A stretch of 64,000 nt of DNA from Trichodelitschia bisporula (Eukaryota), in NCBI GenBank assembly GCA_010356995.1, contig ML996687.1, positions 621,803-685,802 on the forward strand, read 5' to 3'. Of the stretch, positions 2,520 through 17,223 are shown piece after piece. The notes beneath the pieces are model-generated. The model was given only the letters and a program-made list of their open reading frames with translations. It was not told where the DNA came from and did not search any database. The translations under genes and the position numbers were made by a program. Numbering within the stretch: position 1 is the first letter of the stretch; each line of letters opens with the position of its first letter.

Positions 2520-3524
2520 CTATGGCCGGGGCAGCGAATCCATCTCGGACCGCTGTCCACGTCGCGCCTCTCCTCGACCTACTTCCTCCCCTACTATCTC
2601 CACAGTCCAAAGCACCGTCTCCCCGCGCACTTCCACCTCCACCTCGTCTTGCACCGCAAAATTACTCGTACTTACCCTGCCCCCCATCCTCGTCTCCCAG
2701 TCTGTCACATCCCATCTCAATCCCCGCGTACTCAACACCGCAGGCCCATAAATCGGCACCAGCCCACAATTCCCACTAAACACGCCCCCCGCCGGGTTCA
2801 CTCCATGAATAACATGGCGTCCGGGGCGCAGCAAAAACGACACGTTCGACTGCCCGATCAGAATGAGGTCATACCCGGGGTTATCGTTCGACTCGCGGAG
2901 CAATTCGTGCAGTAGGCCCAGAGCCTGGTCGACGCGCCCCGAGAGCGAGGCGAGGATGAGGACCGTGTGCCGGGGGGGTGGCACAACGCATTGATATTTA
3001 TAGCTGCTCTCAAGTAGTCTTTTGAGCTCCCCTAGCGCCTTTGCGAAATCGGTGCTCTCCTGATCGTCGTCCCGCGTCACCTTCGTACCCTCCCGTTCGT
3101 AGAAATCTCGCACGTCGTCCCGCACCGAGTCGAGATCGCCGTGGATGAAGTTCGGTAACTAGTCGATCAGCCACCGGTGTCCACAGAGAGAGGCAGGTCA
3201 GCATACCCAGTCATTAGCCTCCGTCCGGCCAAGCGCATCGAACAACCTGTTCGCGCCGCCATCGGCACATGCCCACGGCCACGTCCTTTCCAATATCGTT
3301 TTCAGAACAGAAACGGGCGGAAGAACGGTGTTTAAAATAAGAAGGCTAGCTTCATATCTCGTCTCGTCCTCTGATAATGGCCGGAAAAACGATGCGGGGA
3401 AGTGGTGCTTCACATCGGTGCCGGAGGGCGGCGTGTGATCAGATCCCAAGGGCGCGGGGGCAGAAGCGGATGTAGATGTACCAGATAAGATGTGCGCGGT
3501 TGTCGGGGGGTTAGAAGACGCCAT
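2520..3524 (-). CDS. THI80: Thiamine pyrophosphokinase
   Basis: Motifs CADGGANRLFD, IHGDLDS (formed across intron 3159-3206), DQESTDFAKAL, GRVDQ, TRGLRWD and VSTSN. Confidence 0.92.
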
Positions 3525-3873: not shown

Positions 3874-6800
3874 TCACAGTTTCGCTTTCAGCTGTACGTC
3901 CGCCGGAGCTTTGGCTGGAGCTTTGGCTGGAGCGCCAGGTGAGGAGACTTCCCGGATGTAAAACAGTATCTCCAATTTGTTCAACCACTCCTCGGTGAAG
4001 TCCCGTCCCATTGGATCGTCGCTGGGCGGTTCATCGCCGTTGAATAAGGCCTCGTAGACGTGGAAGATCTCTATGGCATACACCTCCCTTACCCCAAAGG
4101 TATCCTTGTGCTGCGTAAGCAGCCATGGAATACCGTGCCCATTGGGAGTCGCGAGCATGGCTTTAAACTCCTCAGGCGTGTCCTCGGGCGTGAGTCGGGC
4201 AGGCGAACCGCCACGATTCCAGTACTGCACGACTTGCTTTGTCTGTTGCATGGCGTACTGGACTGCATCACGAGTTCGCTCATTGATAACATGGTGGCGC
4301 AGCACATACTTCAGGCCTTTGGGGTCTAATGCCTGTTGATCCTTGTCTTTCTTCCACTGGTAATGGACAAAATCAGACCAGCTTTGCCGGAGCGCTGGCG
4401 GTGATCCGGCTGCTTGGGGTAAGGTAGCCGGTGACTGGTTGTTGAGTCCAATGAGCATCCCTTGGTAAATGGCGTTCATAAAATACGCTCTCGTTGGCCA
4501 CGATACGTTTGCCTTTCGCTGAAAGGTTTCACCCGTCACCTTCTTCGCCTTGAGGCCCAGTTTCTGAAGCATCGGTTTAAACCCCGGAAGCTCAAGATTT
4601 ATAGTTGCGGCCATTGTGTTGATTGCCCACCCGATGTCAAGAATTGTCTTCTCGTCAAGATCAGGGTAGTCCGACTCTACGCTGTCTCGACCGCCAACTT
4701 TTGCCGCGGTAGCAAGATCCGGGGCGGCCATCATCGCCATGAACCTGTGCTCGTGTTAGTCCAGTGCATCGTCTGAGAGGGCGCTCCATCATACTTAGCT
4801 CCTTGGCAAACGTAATCAACCCACCAAGGGGGCTCAGGAATGACCTGGACACTCCGCCGTGACCTGACCTGTTGCACAGAATCCCGAGGAGCGACTGGCC
4901 TTATGTGAAACAGAATTTGCAAACTGTTGTCCCAGCGATTCATGTCCATTCCCTCCCGGTCGTAGGGGTCTGGTTCCAGGAAGTCGTACTTCAACGCGTG
5001 GAAGGCTGTGATACCCCAGATCTCCCGCACACCAAAGGTGTCCTTGTGCTGGGTAAGTAGCCATGCCGCGCCACGCCCGTTCGGAGAGGCGAGAAGAGCT
5101 TTGAAAGGCTCCGGCGTATCTGTGAGAGTAAACCAGACCGGAGGCGGTTTTCCAGGCGTCCAGAACTTGATAGCTTGGCCGGTTTGCTGCATGGCATAGA
5201 TGAGACAATCCCGGGTCTGCACGTTCATCACGCCATCCTGTAGGACATAATTCAGGCCTCTCGGATCTAACGCTTGCTGTGTAGCATCGTTCATCCACTG
5301 GTGGTGCACAAAGTCCGCCCATCGTTGCGGTAAGGATGTCGAGGCCAGTTGGGGACCCTTGTTCGAAGGCGATAGGTTAGCCTCTGCGAAGATGGTACCC
5401 TGAGAAACGACGTTCGTGAAATACCCCTTCTCCAAGTCCCCATATATGTACGACACGCCGTAAGCAAATTCTGGCCTGAGGCCGATTGCCTTACACATCG
5501 CTTCATATCCGCTCAATCTGAGGTCTATGTCGGCTCCGAAAGTGTTGATTGTCCAGCCAGAGTTGATGATGGTGGCGTCATCAAGGTTAGGGTAGGCAGA
5601 TGCCACATTGCCATGGCCGCTAGCCGTTCCCGCAGTCGCCAGGTCCGGCGCAGCCATCATCGCAATATACCGGTCTCCCTTGCAGACAAATTCCTGCCAA
5701 AAGGTCGGCTTTTCAACGACCTGCACACTCCGCCGCGACTTGGCCCTCTGAAGACCCAGAGCTCGATCCTCGGAATCCGACTTGAAAGGAAGCGAAGATG
5801 GCGGCTCAGCTGCGGGTGACTGAACTCCAGGCGATCCTGGCTGGGATGGCGGCTCAGCTGCGGGTGACTGAACTCCAGGCGATCGTGGCTGGGATGGCGG
5901 CTCGGCTGCAGGTGGCTCGACTCCAGGCGATCCTGGCTGAGATGGCGGCTCAGCTGCAGGCGACTCGGCTCCAGGCGATCCCGGCTGAGATAGCGGCGTG
6001 CCCTGGACAGGCCGTATGTAAAACAACATCTCCAGCTGGTTGTTGTTGTTCATATCATAACCATTCGGATCTTTTGGATCGCGCTCCACCTTCCACTCGG
6101 AGCCCTCTTCCCCTACCCCTTCCTCCAGGACGTGGAAGACATCAATGGCCCAGATCTCCCGCACTCCAAACGTTTCCTTGTGTTGGGTGAGGAGCCATGC
6201 TACACCGCGCCCGTTGGGACAGGCGATTAAAGCGTGGAAAGCTTCAGGGTTCTGCTCCAGAGTAAATCGAGCGGGCTTGTGTTCTGCGCCCGAGTCCCAA
6301 TATTGGATAATCTGGTCCGTTAACTGGAGAGCGTACTTGATAGTATCCTGGGATTGCCCATTAACAACATCAGATTGTAGTACAGCTTTCAGTCCTTGGG
6401 GGTCCAGAGCCTGCTGCACCGCATCTGCTTGCCACTGGTATGCCATGAAGTCGGACCAACGCGACATTGGTGGTTGTCCCACTGGCACAGTTGCAGCAGC
6501 AGCGGCAGCGGCAGGCGAGAAGTTATTCTCGGCCACAAGCAAGCCTTGATGGATGATATTCACATAGTGTGAGCTATACTCCTGGAGGAATTAATCGGAC
6601 TCAAAGGACCATGCGGGCTTGTGGAACTTGCCTTTGCCCGTTTCCTTCTGTCTTCCGTTTGACGATAGTGGTCGTACGTGAACTCAATACTCCGGGCCTG
6701 GAATGAAGATATACCAAGCGCGGCCAACATTTGAGCATATGTCGGGTGTTTGAAGTCAGGAGCAGACTCATCGTCCGAAACTGTCCACCCCGAAGAAAGG

Positions 6801-7204
6801 ACATCCTGCTCGCTAGGATTGGGCCAGTCCGATGCAGTCTTTTGTGCGCCATTCGCGGCCTGGGCTGCGTTGATGTCGGGAGCCTTCATCATGTTCACGA
6901 GCCGGGCACCCTTGCAGACGAAGTCTATCCAGAACTTCGGCTCGTAGATGATATCCACACCAGGCCGCCATTGCATCGAGCGGATCGTGGGCAACGAGAG
7001 TGTAGTGAGGTTGTCGAGATGCAAAGCTGATTCAGCGGTATCCGGTATTTCGGTAGCAAACGGCGTGAACAGGACGCCGAGATCGAGAGCGTGCGGCACC
7101 AAGCTCGCTGTGTTCCACGTCGCATGATGCAGGAAGAGAGCCAGAAGTGTGGTGATGATGAAGACAGACGCCCCCAGAGGCTTGCAGAAGCGTGACGCCA
7201 GCAT
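3874..7204 (-). CDS. Secreted or membrane-anchored protein of unknown function with three tandem homologous domains (~1076 aa)
   Basis: Exons 7204-6632, 6581-4795 and 4744-3874 join in frame via a GC-AG intron (6582-6631) and a GT-AG intron (4745-4794). Hydrophobic N-terminus. The motif PNGxGxxWLLTQHKxTFGVRE occurs three times. Confidence 0.8.
5799..5990 (-). repeat. Coding minisatellite, 4 x 48 nt (SQPGSPGVQSPAAEPP linker)
   Basis: Four near-identical 16-aa units are visible in both DNA and translation. Confidence 0.95.
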
Positions 7205-7510
7205 TTTGGCGAGAAGCGAATGTGGACTGCCCAGAGGGCGAAGGAATGTGTGAGCTGAGGGTGAAGCAGAGTAAAGATGCGGAGGTATCCACAGTGCTGT
7301 AAAGAGTGACTGAAGATGGAGAGGGGCGGGCGGGTGTAGAGGTTGGAAAGGGAAAGGTTGGCAAAGTGGAAGAAGTTTAGAATTCTCTGCAGTTCTTCAA
7401 TCCTGTATGGGCAGCCGAGGTGTCAATGTGTGAGAGAAAGAGGAAGGAATGACCTCGTAGCCCCTTCCCTCCCCAGTCAGACACCATCGCTCCTCCCCCC
7501 CATCGACCGC

Positions 7511-8581
7511 TTACGACACGCGCACGACATTCAGACGGGGCGCCTCAGGCTCGCGGTGCAAGGCGGTAAACTCTCCGACTTCAATCCGCCTCTGCCACTT
7601 TGCCGATTCGCACCGCCCTGTTACCACCGTCATTCGCAGCACCGGCTCTTCCTGCTGCGTATTTGGAACTTGAGTAACAGTCCACCGTCCAAAGGCCCAG
7701 TTAAGAATGTATCGACCAGGGGAGTCGGCAGTCGTTGGTAAGGCGGATTTGTCTCCATTTGACGACGACGGCGCCTCGAGGCAGTAGAAGACTGCTTTGA
7801 TGCGGTACACCTCATCTTTGGATGCTTCCTGCAGCAGGGTCTTCAGCCTCGGCCAGCTGACACCGTCAGAAGGGTCGGGAGACGACAGCGTGACGGACAG
7901 GACTTCCACTTCGCTGTGGTGGTCATGGTCGTGGGGGTGCTCCTGCTCCTCTTCCGCACTCTTCGCGAGCTTCGCGTCTAGGCCGAGCAGCACATCTTTG
8001 CTGACCCAACCCTTGTCCGATTTCTCCCGCGGCGTTGGGACATCGAGATCGAGGTCGAGAATTCGGTCAATGCACTCTTCAAGTGCCCTTTCGCTAACGT
8101 GCTCCCACTTGTTCAGAACCAGCAGATCGGTATAGTTGGCTTGTAGCTTCGCCGTCACAGATGTGTCGTCGTAGCCCTTCCAGTTCTCCACGTCGATGAC
8201 AGAGATGACACCGTCAAGAACATAGTGCCCGGTCTCGCGTGCAATTCGGTTGATTTCCATGGCCAGAGTGGCGGGGAACGCGCTGCCGCTCGTCTCAATG
8301 ATAAAGCGATCTGGCGACTGCTCCGTCCGTAGCGTCTCGAGCGCGTCGCCCAGAGATCCAACCAGGTTGCAGCATATACAGCCGTTCAAAAGCTCCCGTA
8401 CGCCAGAGATGGCGGATGAGGCGGCCAGCTGGGAGTCCACGGCCACATCTCCAAATTCATTCTTTACCAGCGCTAGGCGGTAATTATCAGGTAGTTGCGG
8501 GATCAAGTTCAGTATCAGAGTGGTCTTGCCAGAGCCCAAGAAGCCGGTAATAATGGTGATGGGTATGGGAGAGGCGGTCAT
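7511..8581 (-). CDS. COG0523/CobW-family (Zng1-like) G3E metal-chaperone GTPase
   Basis: Walker A GFLGSGKTT, NEFG, GCICC, IETSG, NKWE and a His-rich stretch HPHDHDHH. Confidence 0.9.
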   Translation of the reverse strand: MTASPIPITIITGFLGSGKTTLILNLIPQLPDNYRLALVKNEFGDVAVDSQLAASSAISGVRELLNGCICCNLVGSLGDALETLRTEQSPDRFIIETSGSAFPATLAMEINRIARETGHYVLDGVISVIDVENWKGYDDTSVTAKLQANYTDLLVLNKWEHVSERALEECIDRILDLDLDVPTPREKSDKGWVSKDVLLGLDAKLAKSAEEEQEHPHDHDHHSEVEVLSVTLSSPDPSDGVSWPRLKTLLQEASKDEVYRIKAVFYCLEAPSSSNGDKSALPTTADSPGRYILNWAFGRWTVTQVPNTQQEEPVLRMTVVTGRCESAKWQRRIEVGEFTALHREPEAPRLNVVRVS

Positions 8582-8873
8582 GATGGTACGATCCACCCTG
8601 GTGTTGCTAATTCTTGCCTTTTATGGACTAGGTACCAAACGCATAAAAGCTGTTTGATTGAAGAAACTGGCTATATGTAGTCACCATTCTACACGGCGCT
8701 CGTTGGGTGATGCCCTGTGTAAAGGCTTGCACGATGTTTGGTTGCAAACACGGCATAACGTTTCGCCGCGGCCCCCGACGCCTGCGACATCGGATTGCGG
8801 GACAGTCATGGCGTCTCGAACTTCTGCTCTGCAACTTTTTCCCCGCCAAACGTACCCCACACTCCCTTCCTCA

Positions 8874-10563
8874 ATGGCTTCCCACACCCCCTCCCAGCGC
8901 TACCTCAGTACGCGTGGAGGTTCTTATGACTTCTCCTTTGAAGATGTAGTTCTCAAGGGCCTCGCGGCTGATGGCGGCCTTTTCATCCCGGAGGAAATAC
9001 CAGCCTTGCCGCAAGGCTGGCAAACCGAGTGGGCGAACCTCTCCTTCGAGGAGCTTGCGGTCAACATTTTTTCGCTCTACATTTCTCCGTCCGAGATCCC
9101 GCCTGCCGATCTCAAAGAGCTTGTCCGTAAGAGCTATGCCACGTTCCGCGATCCCTCCGTCACTCCCACCGTAACCCTCGACCCCACCCGGAACGTGCAT
9201 CTCCTCGAACTGTTCCACGGTCCGACCTTTGCGTTCAAAGATGTCGCATTGCAGTTCCTAGGCAATCTGTTCGAGTACTTCCTCGTGCGGCGTAACGCCG
9301 ACAAGTCCGCTGCCGATCGCGAGCATTTGGTCGTCATTGGCGCCACGAGTGGCGACACTGGGTCGGCGGCCATCTACGGCCTCCGCGGCAAGAAGGATCT
9401 CTCTGTGTTCATCATGCACCCCAAGGGAAAGATCAGCCCAGTGCAGGAGGCACAGATGACCACGGTGTTGGACGCCAATGTGCACAATTTGGCGGTGGAG
9501 GGTACGTTTGATGATTGCCAGGTATGGTTCCCGCTTGCTCTTGTTTGCATCACACAATCCGACAAAGCGCTCTGGAGTTCATTTGGACGTAAGCTGACCA
9601 CCCCAGGATTTTGTTAAAGCCCTCTTCGCCGACACTGAATTCAACAAGACACACCGCCTTGCAGCCGTCAATTCCATAAACTGGGCGCGCATCCTCGCCC
9701 AGATAACCTACTACTTTGCCTCGTACTTTGCGCTGCGGCGCGCCAACCCCTCCCAGCAGTCTATCCGCTTTGTCGTCCCGACCGGCAACTTCGGCGACAT
9801 CCTCGCAGGCTACTTCGCGAAGCGCATGGGCCTCCCCATCACACAGCTCGTAATCGCAACAAACGAAAACGACATTCTGCACCGCTTCTGGCGCTCCGGG
9901 CGTTACGAGAAGCACGAGGTGCGCGGCCCAGCTGCAGCGGGTGGCCTCCCGCAGGACGGCGTTAAGGCTCACGAGGCTGGCGTCAAGGAGACGCTCTCCC
10001 CTGCCATGGATATTCTGGTCAGCAGTAACTTCGAGCGCCTGCTCTGGTTCCTCGCGCACGACGTCCTAGGCTCCGGCGACGAAGCGTCGCGTCGCAAGAC
10101 TGCGGGCGAGGCTGTTAACGGCTGGCTCCAGGCCCTCAAGACTGAGGGCGGGTTTGCCGTCCCGGAGGAGGTCCTGGCTAAGGCCAGGCAGAACTTTGCC
10201 ACGGAGCGTGTGTCCGATGCGCAGACGCTGGCGACGATAACGGGGGCGTACAAGTGGGCGAAGGGATATGTGCTTGACCCGCATAGCGCGATTGGCATTG
10301 CTGCGGCGGAGCGTGTGGTACAACAGGGCGCAGAGGGGGATGTCGTTGCGCTGGCCACGGCGCATCCGGCGAAGTTTTCGGGTGCGGTGGAGTTGGCGCT
10401 TGCGCAGGAAAAGGCCTTTGATTTCAAGGCCCACGTGCAACCCAAAGAGTTTGCTGGGCTCGAGGATTTGCCGCGGAGGGTCACCACGGTCAGGCGCGAG
10501 GATGGGCTGGAGGGCGTGAGAAAGGTGGTACTGGAAGAGGTTGCTGCTGAGGGGGCGGCTTGA
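8874..10563 (+). CDS. THR4: Threonine synthase
   Basis: Motifs YLSTRG, ELFHGPTFAFKD, GATSGDTG, FDDCQ|DFVK across intron 9522-9606, PTGNFG, DPHSA and TAHPAKF. An alternative in-frame ATG lies at 8808. Confidence 0.97.
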
Positions 10564-12988: not shown

Positions 12989-14254
12989 TTAAAGCTTCGC
13001 TCTCCCCGACTCCCCCTCCAACCGCCCCTTTACCCACTCCTCAATACTGGCTACAAGCGCCTCGACTTCCTCCCTGCTATTCCCCGCATGCAAACACACC
13101 CTCACCCGCCTCGTCGGCACCGTAGGCGGCACAACCGCCCGCACCACAAACCCGCCCTCCTGACACCATGCCGCCAAACTCCTCGGATGCTCCGTCTGGA
13201 GACTGAAAATCGGTGACGGAGGCGGGTCCGCTGCCACACTGAGGGTACGGGCCAAGTTCGGATACTGCTTATACCGCCCCAACAAGCCCAAAAGTAGGGC
13301 ATGCATATACGCCGTCAGCGCCGTCAAGTGCTTTACCAATGGCTTAGTAGCTCCGGATTCCAGCAGCCCGTACGCAGCGCGCACGCCTGCCAGCGAAGGG
13401 AAGGGCATGAAGGTCGTGTATATCAGCGGCCGCGCGTAGTTTACCAGATACTCACGCACAAGCGGTGAGCACAGCACAGCAGCCCCTCCAGCGGCCAGCG
13501 CCTTGCCGAAGGTGTGCAGGCGTGCGAAGATGCGGTTTTCGAGGCCGAGGGCGCAGACTAACCCCCTGCCCTGTGGGCCGAGGACGCCGGTTCCGTGTGC
13601 TTCGTCGAGGATGATGTGGGCGTTGCGGTGCGGGAAGAGGGTTGACGTTAGGGTGGTTATGGCGGCCAGGGGCGCGATGTCGCCGTCCATGGAGTAGACG
13701 GATTCGAGGGCGATGAACCCATTGGTTTGGCCGGATGCCAGGCCGGGGTGCGAGGCGAGGAGGGAGGTGAGGATGCGTTCTAGGTCGTCGACGTCGTTGT
13801 GCGCGAAGGGTAAGGTCTTGGAGGCGCGGGACAGGCGCATCCCGTCGTGCACGCTGGCGTGGATGAGGGCGTCGTGTACGATTACATCGCCTGGCTGTGG
13901 GACACAGGCGAAGACCCCGGCGTTGGCGTCGAAGCCGGAATTGAAGAGCAGCGCTGCTGGGGCGCGGTGGAAGGTCGCGATGGTTGATTCGAGAGCGAGG
14001 GCGTACGGGCTGTTGCCGTCTAGCAGGCGGGAGCCGCCGCTACCTAGGGGGAAGGTTGGGTGCGCGGCGAGTTCGGAGAGGAAGGTTTCCCGGAGGAGGG
14101 GGGATGTGGAGAGGGAGAGGAAGTCGTTGCTGGAGAAGTCGATGCTGCCGGTTGGGGCGGTGGTTAGGCGTCGGAGGGTGGAGTTTTTGAGGCGTTTCTG
14201 GAGGCGGGCGTGGAGGGCGGTCTCCAGGCCGGGGGCTGGTTTGAAGTCCTCCAT
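12989..14254 (-). CDS. bioF: 8-amino-7-oxononanoate (KAPA) synthase, peroxisomal
   Basis: Motifs FSSNDFL, GSGGSRLL, HASVHDG, SVYSMDGD, DEAH and TFGKA. C-terminal PTS1 -AKL. Confidence 0.95.
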   Translation of the reverse strand: MEDFKPAPGLETALHARLQKRLKNSTLRRLTTAPTGSIDFSSNDFLSLSTSPLLRETFLSELAAHPTFPLGSGGSRLLDGNSPYALALESTIATFHRAPAALLFNSGFDANAGVFACVPQPGDVIVHDALIHASVHDGMRLSRASKTLPFAHNDVDDLERILTSLLASHPGLASGQTNGFIALESVYSMDGDIAPLAAITTLTSTLFPHRNAHIILDEAHGTGVLGPQGRGLVCALGLENRIFARLHTFGKALAAGGAAVLCSPLVREYLVNYARPLIYTTFMPFPSLAGVRAAYGLLESGATKPLVKHLTALTAYMHALLLGLLGRYKQYPNLARTLSVAADPPPSPIFSLQTEHPRSLAAWCQEGGFVVRAVVPPTVPTRRVRVCLHAGNSREEVEALVASIEEWVKGRLEGESGRAKL

Positions 14255-14740
14255 GGCTGGTAGGGATGTGGTGCTGGCAGAGTTGAAGTTGGTGATGGTT
14301 GATGGTTGATACGGACGGAGGTGAGGAAAAAGCCGACTCAACGCGATTGAAGCGGGATCTTTACGGCATCAACTCAACGATCAACCAACAAGCTGCAAGG
14401 GGACGTGAGGCTCACCACGCTCCCTCTCTCGAAGAAGTCAATTTTATATAAAAAGTAAACACGCCGTTCACCATCCCCGATCTCGCATCCGAGCACCCGG
14501 GGTAAGACGCGCGGCTGGCCGCAGCCGACGTGACGTCGCACCGCCGCATTTTTCCGCCCCCGGCGAGATCGGAAAAGCCCAGCCCAGCCCCAGGTCCGGG
14601 GTGCCGTGCCGCGCGATCGGGATCTTCGGTAAAGAGCTTCAGCCACCGCCGAGATATCAGATCTCGACTCTCAGATCTTGTCCGAAGGCGGAGTCACGCG
14701 AGACGGTGGAGGAAGCGAAAAAGGACAGAGAAGCAGCGCA
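14255..14740. promoter_or_regulatory. Bidirectional bioF/bioDA promoter region
   Basis: About 490 bp between divergent ATGs, with an AT box TTTTATATAAAAA near 14442-14454 and eight GATC cores. Confidence 0.6.
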
Positions 14741-17223
14741 ATGCGAGTCGGTCCCGGGCTCTGGCCGCGCCTGCGCGCAGTCCAGGTGTACGGCGCGAAT
14801 ACAAATGTCGGCAAAACGCTCGTCTCGACGCTGCTGGTCAAGGCCGCGCGTGAGCGTCGTAACTGGCGAACTTGGTACTTGAAGCCCGTATCGACGGGGC
14901 CACTGGATGAGGCGGACAATAGGTACACTTCGTATATATACTCCCAACTATTCGGCTAACATCACCAGCCATATCGCCCGCCATGCGCCCACCGTCCCCT
15001 CCCGCACGCTCTTCCAATTCCGCACTCCCGTCTCCCCGCATCTCGCTGTGCGCCTCGAATCCACCTCCCTCGGAGACGCACCTATCCTCTCCGGCGTCCA
15101 CGCCGAACTAACCCGCTACGCCGCCGCAGGGCCCGGTTTCGCCCTCGTCGAAACGGCGGGGGGCGTCCTCTCCCCCGCCCCATCGGGCAGTCTGCAGGCC
15201 GACGTCTACCGCCCCCTGCGCCTCCCCGTGCTGCTCGTCGCTGACCACGCGCTCGGTGGGATAGCGACTAGCATCAGCGCGTTCGAATCGTTGCATGTCC
15301 GCGGCTATGATGTCACCTCCGTGGTCCTGATCCAGGATGAGGAGTATCGTAATGCAGAGTATCTGACCGAGTACTTCGCCGATCGCGGAATCGCGACGAC
15401 AGGGATTCCCCCACCGCCGGCGCGGCTGCCGGACTCGAATTCCGATGCCGAGTCACTGGGGAAGTATTACGAGCAGGTCAGTGCTTCGCCTGCGATCGAC
15501 GGCGTGTTGCAGGGAATTGAAGATGAGCACGAGGCCCGGCTCGCAAGACTAGGGACTATGGCCGAGGAGGCACATAAGAGCATTTGGTACCCGTTTACGC
15601 AGCATCAGGGGCGGAAGGCGGAGGATATCCTCGTCATTGACTCGGCGTATGGAGATGACTTTGCTGCTCTGACGCCTACTGGTTTGCCATCCGCCAGCGG
15701 GGTTACGGAGATGCAGTCGGCCACAACCTCGGAGTCGACCGAGCCGACCGAGCTTGCGAAAGCTGCGCCCTCCCTCCTCCAACCCACCTTCGACGGCTCC
15801 GCCTCCTGGTGGACCCAAGGTCTGGGCCACGGTTCGCCCGCCCTCTCCCTCGCGGCCGCGCACGCCGCTGGCCGCTACGGGCACGTCATGTTCGCGGGCG
15901 CCGTGCACGAGCCCGCCCTCGCCCTCGCACAACTCCTCCTCACGCACCACGCCAACCCGCGCCTATCCCGGGTGTTCTACACCGACAACGGCAGCGCCGG
16001 CATGGAAGTAGCGGTAAAGATGGGTTTACGGGCGGCATGTGCGCGGTACGGGTGGGATCATACTGCGAAAAAGGTGGAGATCTTGGGCTTGAAGGGCGGG
16101 TATCATGGGGATACGATGGGGGTGATGGATGCGGCGGAGCCGAGTACGTATAATGCGCGGGTGGAGTGGTATACGCCGCGCGGGTATTGGTTTGAGTTTC
16201 CACAGGTGAAGATGCGGGATGGGAAGTGGGTTGTTGAGAGCCCGGCTGGTTTGGAGGGGATTTTTGGGCCGCCGAGGGAGTTTGGGAGTCTGGGCGAGGT
16301 GTTTGAACTGCAAACCCGCGATGCGAGTGCGTACGAGAAATACATCACTGCTACGCTGAAGGACTTGCGGGATCAGAGCCGGACCTTCGGTGCCCTGGTG
16401 CTAGAGCCCGTGGTACTCGGCGCGGGGGGGATGTATTTTGCGTGCGTTATCCTTCCCCCTCCCCTCCCTCGCTCTTTCTACATAACTAACCCTACTCCCC
16501 AGCGACCCCCTCTTCCAGCACGCCCTCATAAACACAATTCGGCGCAACCCTACCCTCATCTCCGCCACCGCACCGCCGCCCACCTCGGACCCGGAGGACT
16601 GGACCGGCCTCCCCATCATCTTCGACGAAATCTTCACCGGCTTATACCGGCTGGGCCACTTCAACACCTCAGCCCTTCTCCAGGCGGAGCCGGATATCAT
16701 CGCCAATGCGAAGCTGCTAACAGGTGGTCTGGTCCCGCTGTGTACGACCGCGGCGAGCGAGAGTATATTTGAAGCCTTCCTGAGCGCAGATAAGGCGAGC
16801 GCGCTGCTGCATGGGCATAGTTACACAGCCCATGCGGTGGGATGTGCGGTTGCGGTCGAGAGTGTGAAGATGCTCATGGGGTTGGAGAGGACCTGGGGTG
16901 GATATAGGGAGGATTGGGGCGGTGGGAAGGTGTGGAGTATGTGGTCACGGGGCTTCGTTGAGCAAGTGAGTCGCCTGAAGAGAGTGGACTATGCGGCGGC
17001 TATGGGGAGTGTGTTTGTTGTTGCACTCAAGGATGAGGAGGGGGCAGGTTATAACTCCAATGCGTCGGCGGACGTGCAGCGGAGGTTGATGGAGGGGACG
17101 GGTGGGTATCGGATTCATAACCGCGTCCTCGGGAATGTGCTCTACCTCATGGCGAGCGAGACCAGTACGCCGGACACCCTGGCCGAAGTGCAGAGGTGTC
17201 TACTTGAGGCTTTGGAGGCGTGA
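14741..17223 (+). CDS. bioDA: Bifunctional dethiobiotin synthetase / DAPA aminotransferase
   Basis: BioD motifs GANTNVGKT, LKPVSTG and ETAGG; BioA motifs IWYPFTQH, DGSASWW, YHGDT, FDEIFTG and AKLLTGG. Introns 14923-14968 and 16442-16502 restore the frame. Confidence 0.95.

Follow-up and report, generated by a model that had tools for sequence, protein, structure and literature searches.

The alpha and beta subunits of the KP6 toxin derive from one precursor that is processed by Kex2. Kex2-processed repeat proteins (KEPs) are defined, in the accessible part of PMC6339444, by a signal peptide and by KR, RR or KK sites between at least three internal repeats that cover more than 15% of the protein; their products are mostly short peptides, with 9 to 24 amino acids (aa) as the commonest class in most Dikarya groups, and the largest motif is 352 aa. 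Tandemly repetitive polyproteins, in which similar units that fold separately are encoded by one transcript and are cut apart after translation into copies of similar function, are called rare in the text available from PMC3079579. Here we analyzed a window of 64,000 nucleotides (nt) from Trichodelitschia bisporula (GCA_010356995.1, contig ML996687.1, positions 621,803 to 685,802 of the forward strand; coordinates below are those of the window), in which the original prediction, made from the letters alone, had placed a gene for a Kex2-processed polyprotein of three homologous domains. The gene encodes a 1076-aa protein with three related units, and we consider it quite probable that this protein is a tandemly repetitive secretory polyprotein that is processed by Kex2.

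Three minus-strand reading frames lie at the locus (6560–7396, 4731–6590 and 3874–4755). Candidate introns that preserve the frame were enumerated, and two of them, both 50 nt long, had good splice signals. Joining the frames across these two introns gives a coding sequence of 3231 nt with a single stop codon, and the 1076-aa protein that had been proposed is thereby confirmed. For comparison we used contigs from two runs of one sample; the RNA nature of these runs was guessed, as no record states it, yet the contigs are spliced. Both introns are skipped exactly in the contigs of both runs (2/2), with zero letter differences from the genome, and the alternative introns were dropped because the contigs back only these two. 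Since the contigs show no other letters, the Arg-Pro pair ahead of unit 1 is not a sequencing error. Exon 1 matched the profile of the family described below with a probability of 96.7. The parts of the gene are as follows, with the evidence in brackets; pLDDT is the predicted local distance difference test score of structure models, and pTM the predicted template modelling score.

6632..7204, minus strand: exon 1 (aa 1–191), with the start, the hydrophobic segment, the pro-region and the N-terminal third of unit 1 (frames and RNA contigs)
7130..7174, minus strand: hydrophobic segment (aa 11–25), signal peptide or signal anchor (Kyte-Doolittle mean 2.33)
6980..6991, minus strand: P-T-I-R (aa 72–75), candidate non-canonical Kex2 site ahead of unit 1, with predicted cleavage (scan with the extended motif given in the Fig. 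1B legend of PMC8528282)
6962..6970, minus strand: W-R-P of W-R-P-G-V-D, where units 2 and 3 have S-R-R (alignment; RNA contigs agree)
6006..6961, minus strand: unit 1 (aa 82–383, about 34 kDa), split by intron 1 (model alignment)
6638..6649, minus strand: R-R-K-R (aa 186–189) in a hairpin loop inside unit 1, beside intron 1, candidate nick site (sequence)
6582..6631, minus strand: intron 1, 50 nt, GC-AG, phase 0 (RNA contigs)
4795..6581, minus strand: exon 2, a single open frame with the rest of unit 1, linker 1, the whole of unit 2, linker 2 and the start of unit 3 (frames and RNA contigs)
5730..6005, minus strand: linker 1 (aa 384–475), rich in Pro, Ser and Glu (pLDDT about 30–40 over most of it)
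5730..5735, minus strand: RR site 1 (aa 474–475), followed by SVQV (pLDDT below 50 at the site)
4893..5729, minus strand: unit 2 (aa 476–754, about 31 kDa), without introns (pLDDT 90.2, pTM 0.89)
4884..4895, minus strand: V-A-P-R (aa 754–757), followed by D, candidate non-canonical site that would trim unit 2 (motif scan)
4854..4859, minus strand: RR site 2 (aa 766–767), followed by SVQV (pLDDT below 50 at the site)
3946..4853, minus strand: unit 3 (aa 768–1053, about 33 kDa), split by intron 2 (model alignment)
4745..4794, minus strand: intron 2, 50 nt, GT-AG, with a branch-site-like CTAAC (RNA contigs; also in the public annotation P0005)
3874..4744, minus strand: exon 3, with the rest of unit 3, a short Ala/Pro/Lys tail and the stop codon (frames and RNA contigs)

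One spliced contig carries units 2 and 3, and unit 1 lies on a separate contig. The two contigs part within a 48-nt tandem repeat in linker 1 (5796–5997, 4.2 copies), and one run has short contigs that overlap this gap. Direct evidence for the single transcript assumed at the outset thus extends over units 2 and 3 and stops short of unit 1; over the whole gene such a transcript is well supported, by the open frame rather than by one read. The public annotation (P0005, KAF2405068.1) corresponds to the last 847 aa of our model, so that 229 N-terminal residues, the hydrophobic segment among them, are missing from it; the GC donor of intron 1 probably explains the loss of exon 1 from that model.

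The predicted hydrophobic N-terminus was found at aa 11–25, which is the sole strongly hydrophobic stretch of the protein (beyond residue 60, the best 15-residue window reaches a Kyte-Doolittle value of 1.29). The three domain copies are present as described, with pairwise identities of 46%, 45% and 49% over units that cover 867 of the 1076 residues, although the folded units measure about 280–300 aa instead of the 290–320 aa first estimated. Core residues are retained in all three units, and each has just one to three cysteines. Synonymous sites between the units are near saturation (proportion of synonymous differences 0.73–0.81) and nonsynonymous divergence is 0.42–0.52; the duplications are therefore ancient, and the units have evolved under constraint. 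The protein contains four KR or RR positions, two of them within the RRKR of unit 1. The SRR pairs followed by SVQV ahead of units 2 and 3 lie at the very codons originally named, and unit 1 indeed has WRPGVD in place of a dibasic site. The RRKR, P-T-I-R and V-A-P-R sites had not been mentioned before. The extended Kex2 motif has three further matches inside the units, so that a match to it counts for little. Among 172 family units, 16 have KR or RR in the segment of the RRKR loop, the close paralogue P0011 among them, and a site in this loop therefore seems tolerated. The genome holds one kexin-like gene, an 846-aa frame with S8 and P domains.

An exhaustive protein search returned 398 cluster representatives at E values of at most 0.001. 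We used the best 150 of these 398, 149 of them besides the present gene; P0026, among the 150, is a false match with SpaA-type repeats. When 30 clusters were looked up, nearly all that were named proved to be ascomycete hypothetical proteins, and the relatives come from Cladosporium, Fulvia, Pseudocercospora, Zasmidium, Venturia, Recurvomyces, Penicillium, Conoideocrella and lichen fungi. A Fusarium relative came from a word-seeded search with the alignment; searches of this type were insensitive here, yielding no match with unit 2, seven with the alignment and three longer ones. By lifestyle, the fungi that carry the family range from saprotrophs, lichen formers and rock dwellers to pathogens of plants, among them Fulvia, Venturia and Fusarium. 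Pfam matched none of four window pieces; among 84 family members it gave four unrelated weak hits, each in a single member and none to GNAT, and on 30 and 7 long relatives no family covering the unit. NCBIfam returned one borderline hit and no family for the unit, PHROGs nothing below an E value of 0.09, and PDB sequences no match for the unit (best E values of 0.16 and 0.22); the ESM Atlas gave feature scores below 0.9 and a low-confidence model for P0056. As far as these searches reach, the unit is a member of a widespread ascomycete family without a catalogue entry.

Single-domain homologues, which the original prediction had proposed to look for, turned out to be numerous, and most relatives are single-unit precursors. 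An N-terminal hydrophobic segment is present in 42 of 56 full-length relatives, and 28 of the 39 single-unit relatives with a long N-terminus have KR or RR upstream of the domain, in 19 of them at most 40 aa away, a count taken with no control set. These numbers are the basis for a family plan of signal, pro-region, basic site and domain. The same genome contains 10 further places with family similarity, one of them weak, and all of them are single-unit. Contig C19 carries a tandem of three separate single-unit family genes, every one of which has a hydrophobic N-terminal stretch and a stop of its own (L011:221-4708; G000:C19:18700-23200); this trio is the unfused counterpart of the three-unit array. 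Other copies are divergent or decayed, with conserved residues changed (L013:3222-4510 and L015:3677-5298, the latter with an acidic repeat where the signal sequence would be) or reduced to a relic (L017:3323-4165), which suggests birth-and-death evolution. The close single-unit paralogue P0020 (L010:2893-4293) is annotated with an acidic Gly/Ser-rich N-terminus lacking a signal-like segment, and it may be either mis-annotated or non-secreted. In P0140/P0198, from a lichen fungus record, a long modular protein rich in Ser, Thr and Cys, which has no Pfam match, ends in a family unit that is preceded by two KR sites.

Arrays of two to seven near-complete units were found in 23 of the 149 relatives, a list that favours arrays since the scores of several units add up. 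In these 23 proteins, KR or RR occurs in 28 of 36 linkers, compared with 7.8 expected from windows of the domain cores, and none of 2000 shuffles reached the 28; the density is 2.11 per 100 aa in linkers and 0.43 in domain cores, a fivefold difference. A stricter set, from which one 369-aa linker with a degenerate unit was dropped and in which ends were trimmed and sites before Pro left out, still had KR or RR in 27 of 35 linkers (shuffle mean, 14.4; 0/5000 shuffles reached it). Loss of the dibasic sites in multi-domain homologues, which would have counted against the original prediction, is thus not what we see. Collapsing eight Cladosporium-type proteins to one left 19 of 24 linkers with a site (shuffle mean, 9.7; 0/5000). 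In the stricter set, KR outnumbers RK by 20 to 7, and none of its 35 linkers contains a signal-like hydrophobic segment. The largest arrays, of 7–8 units and about 2200 aa, belong to P0007, P0006, P0156, P0170 and their relatives in Cladosporium and elsewhere. Several of their junctions read P-R then A, or A-R then A, instead of KR or RR, and their units cluster by position across species, as in an old and stable order. A scan of metagenome DNA for the large array found none, so the reality of the linkers in other arrays rests on this positional orthology. P0037 of the tomato pathogen Fulvia fulva (CLAFUR4_14551/CLAFUR5_14387) is a 1943-aa array with six matches, in some units of which many core residues are altered.

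In a FastTree phylogeny of 176 units, the three units form one clade (support of 1.0) that groups with a pair of single-unit genes from this genome (0.978). With a subset of 30 units, IQ-TREE gave 100/100 for the three-unit clade and 92.5/96 for its grouping with same-genome single-unit genes. Five other array groups fall into clades of their own at 0.976 or more (P0034, P0090, P0058/P0132, P0021/P0191 and P0050). Together, the three-unit clade and these five clades indicate that arrays arose at least six times independently, unless gene conversion homogenised them. The presumed lineage-specific insertion therefore holds in part: by the trees the triplication is lineage-specific, but the family itself is widespread and occupies 10 other places in this genome. 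Intron 1 provides a second line of evidence. Three annotated same-genome paralogues have a phase-0 intron in the same hairpin loop, with a GT donor in the matching paralogue intron where intron 1 has GC, and three more have a GT donor at that place. Units 2 and 3 have no intron there, and a loss of some 11 residues has shortened unit 2 at that position. Because intron 1 lies at the ancestral position of the family and is missing from units 2 and 3, unit 1 keeps the ancestral layout. The ancestor would have been a single-unit gene with a signal sequence, a disordered pro-region, a basic processing site and one alpha/beta domain of about 280–300 aa, and trees and intron position suggest that two old intragenic duplications each copied the processing site together with the domain. 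Single-unit precursors make up most of the relatives and often carry a basic site ahead of the domain, so the RR sites resemble pro-domain cut sites that were duplicated.

Unit 2, modelled with an 84-sequence alignment, is a confidently predicted alpha/beta domain (pLDDT 90.2, pTM 0.89). A model of the 847-aa protein (pTM 0.59) shows folded units 2 and 3 and gives low confidence to linker 1 and to both RR sites, which supports the view that the units would fold separately. The structure search recommended at the outset found only weak likeness to GNAT proteins. Four such searches mostly returned GNAT-type proteins, aligned over model residues 48 to 280 or so, with best E values of 0.064 in Foldseek and 0.012 in the viral library. 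The best structural match was AQ1966 (2ARH; Z of 5.2–5.3, root-mean-square deviation of 4.2–4.6 Å over 132–139 residues), followed by Rtt109 and the ICL2 C-terminal domain; malonyl-CoA decarboxylase and the GNAT-like domain of CurA were also among the top matches. Across these top rows Z was 5.3 at best, with deviations of 4–5 Å and at most 11% identity. The unit differs from GNAT proteins in being secreted, by its predicted layout, rather than cytosolic, and in an extra N-terminal helix pair. GNAT motif A, Q/R-x-x-G-x-G/A, opens the helix that follows strand 4. At that place, mapped by the order of elements, the unit has P-x-L-x-x-W-S-D, and a conserved N-G-x-G occurs at a later helix start. 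Conserved across the units are D139 (171/176), S138 (165/176), H228 (158/171) and N169 (154/175), as well as G218 and G220, and this set could form an active site. A predicted complex of units 2 and 3 with coenzyme A (CoA) scored 0.00, with alignments unused and ligands unscored, and has no bearing either way.

For secretion, cleavage and function, which we infer, we propose the following course. The precursor would enter the endoplasmic reticulum, where each unit would fold alone. Kex2 of the late Golgi would then cut after the two RR sites and release unit 2 (about 33 kDa) and unit 3 (about 35 kDa) with SVQV N-termini, a release that we consider likely. Unit 1 would probably be freed too, by signal peptidase and a cut at the non-canonical site, and might be nicked at RRKR; the original idea that it stays tethered found no support, with P-T-I-R followed by S ahead of it and RRKR inside it. 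The outcome would be co-expressed, equimolar secretion of three diverged paralogues. Within this model, we hold it at somewhat under an even chance that the products are enzyme-like or ligand-binding, with a distant GNAT-type core and a site formed by W-S-D, N-x-x-T, P-N-G-x-G and H, and that they act outside the producer or on competing microbes; we lean this way because of the predicted secretion, the expansion of the family, which includes decayed copies, and the polar residues that are conserved. A bolder version, in which the unit would stand for an ascomycete family of secreted enzymes or toxins derived from GNAT, repeatedly built into Kex2-cleaved, operon-like cassettes of two to eight diversified paralogues that deliver a cocktail against microbes or hosts from one transcript, appears unlikely.

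Several observations weigh against the proposed processing and enzyme function. No single contig covers units 1 to 3, and both runs represent one sample. Unit 1 lacks a preceding dibasic site and contains an RRKR. At P4 the two RR sites carry Lys and Arg, whereas Kex2 prefers an aliphatic residue there, according to the accessible part of PMC8528282. Eight of the 35 linkers have neither KR nor RR; five of these fit the extended motif and three not even that. KR or RR is also found in 66 of 114 domain cores, so that a dibasic site alone proves little. The linker sites could be inherited pro-domain sites, and the linkers of related arrays are not fully independent. As to the enzyme part, the GNAT-type match (Z of 5.3, 4.2 Å over 132 aligned residues, 9% identity) is accompanied by none at Z of 8 or more, the tool's own bar below which a match may reflect just a common arrangement. 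Several of the conserved residues begin helices and may have a structural role, and acyl-CoA is not expected outside cells.

The leading alternative is that the protein stays uncleaved, or mostly so, as beads on a string: anchored in a membrane or the wall, it would gain avidity or reach from its three domains, and the RR pairs would be pro-domain relics carried along by duplication. The missing dibasic site of unit 1, an N-terminal segment that could be a signal anchor, a linker 1 expanded in spacer-like fashion by the Pro/Ser-rich 48-nt repeat and the eight of 35 homologous linkers without KR or RR would all suit it. However, both RR sites survive despite near-saturated synonymous sites between the units, they lie in segments predicted to be flexible, and the linker enrichment persists after related arrays are collapsed, so we regard this alternative as quite unlikely. 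There is a slim chance that the units, once separated by cleavage, combine into a hetero-oligomeric toxin, in which the same fold serves different roles and the precursor fixes the stoichiometry. Such an arrangement is disfavoured by the predominance of single-unit relatives and by unit numbers that range from one to 7–8, which speak against a fixed complex; the units have only one to three cysteines, and no similarity to a killer-toxin fold appeared in Foldseek or structural alignment searches. The positional clustering of units in the Cladosporium-type array nevertheless suggests that each position keeps its own role, the layout of P0140/P0198, with a unit behind KR sites, recalls toxin payloads, and the alpha and beta subunits of KP6, which pair as a heterodimer, have one fold in common, as described in the accessible part of bioRxiv 10.1101/2024.10.14.618152. 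That the three-unit model is an artefact of gene prediction, made from neighbouring single-unit genes or a decaying fusion, is scarcely credible: the genuine tandem of three separate genes on C19, the shorter public annotation and the want of a contig over the whole gene would fit, but the frame of exon 2 stays open from unit 1 across the whole of unit 2 to the beginning of unit 3, the stretches between units hold no stop, start or signal sequence, units 2 and 3 share one spliced contig, short contigs of one run overlap the repeat, and core residues are kept in all units. Kex2 processing of a secretory polyprotein therefore remains the reading we prefer.

The gene is flanked by the following two genes.

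7511..8581, minus strand: upstream neighbour, CobW-family GTPase (Pfam cobW, E value of 2.8e-43)
2520..3524, minus strand: downstream neighbour, thiamine pyrophosphokinase THI80 (Pfam TPK domains; 48-nt intron in RNA contigs)

One RNA contig (window 5855–8276) runs from the CobW gene through a 306-nt gap into the polyprotein gene, which suggests overlapping untranslated regions or read-through, the contig alone being no proof of one transcript. The adjacency of THI80 and CobW, proposed as a check in relatives, did not recur: neither THI80 nor a family member stood beside CobW in the fetched flanks of 80 CobW loci (0/80; 49 with at least 3 kb downstream). An empty ancestral site was accordingly not found, and this result neither shows nor excludes an insertion. 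A divergent pair of threonine synthase and CobW genes (THR4-CobW, window 8658–10563) is kept in two of the 80 CobW loci (L019 and L021), in one of which other genes follow CobW. Pfam on six flanking frames, the part of the surroundings that was scanned, gave housekeeping families or nothing, and no DUF3328, a gene expected near KEP-type precursors of ribosomally made peptides (RiPPs) of the dikaritin kind. At 12989–17223 lies a divergent pair resembling pyridoxal phosphate enzymes, which we take to be related to fungal biotin synthesis genes (BioF-like and BioD/A-like).

A full-text literature search, whose coverage largely leaves out subscription journals, found no paper on the family, and a search by accessions returned none. 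Family motifs were not found in paper supplements either, in a weak search that covered the KEP table of PMC6339444 in part, and the large-motif KEPs of that table could include this family. As far as KEPs are described in the available text of PMC6339444, PMC7329392 and PMC9769878, the polyprotein resembles them in its N-terminal secretion-type segment, its internal repeats and the KR or RR between repeats. Its three units take up 867 of 1076 aa and are separated by the RR pairs at aa 474–475 and 766–767, and RRKR would split unit 1 in an in-silico digest. It differs in that the units are globular domains of about 30 kDa that are 45–49% identical, with unit 1 lacking a canonical site and bearing an internal RRKR; the phrase "repeats of short peptides" in PMC9769878 does not describe folded domains of 279–302 aa. 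Large repeat units are not unprecedented among KEPs, given the motifs of up to 352 aa reported in PMC6339444. With the Kex2-processed pro-domain (K2PP) effectors SnTox3, ToxA and SIX1/4/6, the single-unit relatives share a signal, a disordered pro-region, a basic site and a folded domain, and non-canonical sites occur in that group, according to the accessible part of PMC8528282. Those proteins release one mature domain, whereas the polyprotein repeats the site together with the domain, and ahead of unit 1 it has only P-T-I-R followed by S, a match to the extended motif, and no KR or RR. No sequence or fold match between these effectors and the unit appeared in our searches.

A parallel in architecture is provided by the ABA-1 polyprotein allergens of nematodes and by filaggrin, in which, by the available text of PMC3079579, one transcript encodes repeated folded units that are cut at furin-type basic motifs, may diverge and in part stay unseparated. 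The polyprotein likewise has similar units that are predicted to fold separately, with a full-length transcript deduced across the linker repeat. The animal proteins have an unrelated fold and small lipid-binding units in a dozen or so copies, whereas the present family consists mainly of single-unit genes in which arrays formed several times. The KP6 subunits have a common fold, as the polyprotein units do, but are small, disulfide-rich, virus-encoded and of unrelated fold (bioRxiv 10.1101/2024.10.14.618152, accessible part). Kex2 repeat proteins themselves are known, in fungi mainly as peptide factories; what appears new here is a Kex2-type repeat precursor whose products would be enzyme-sized folded domains. 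Precursors of 600–2200 aa escape screens for small effector proteins, and the SVQV N-termini are predicted products that offer a cheap prediction to examine. Finally, the apparent moves from single-unit precursor to polyprotein, at least six in number, form a natural series for asking why polyproteins evolve.

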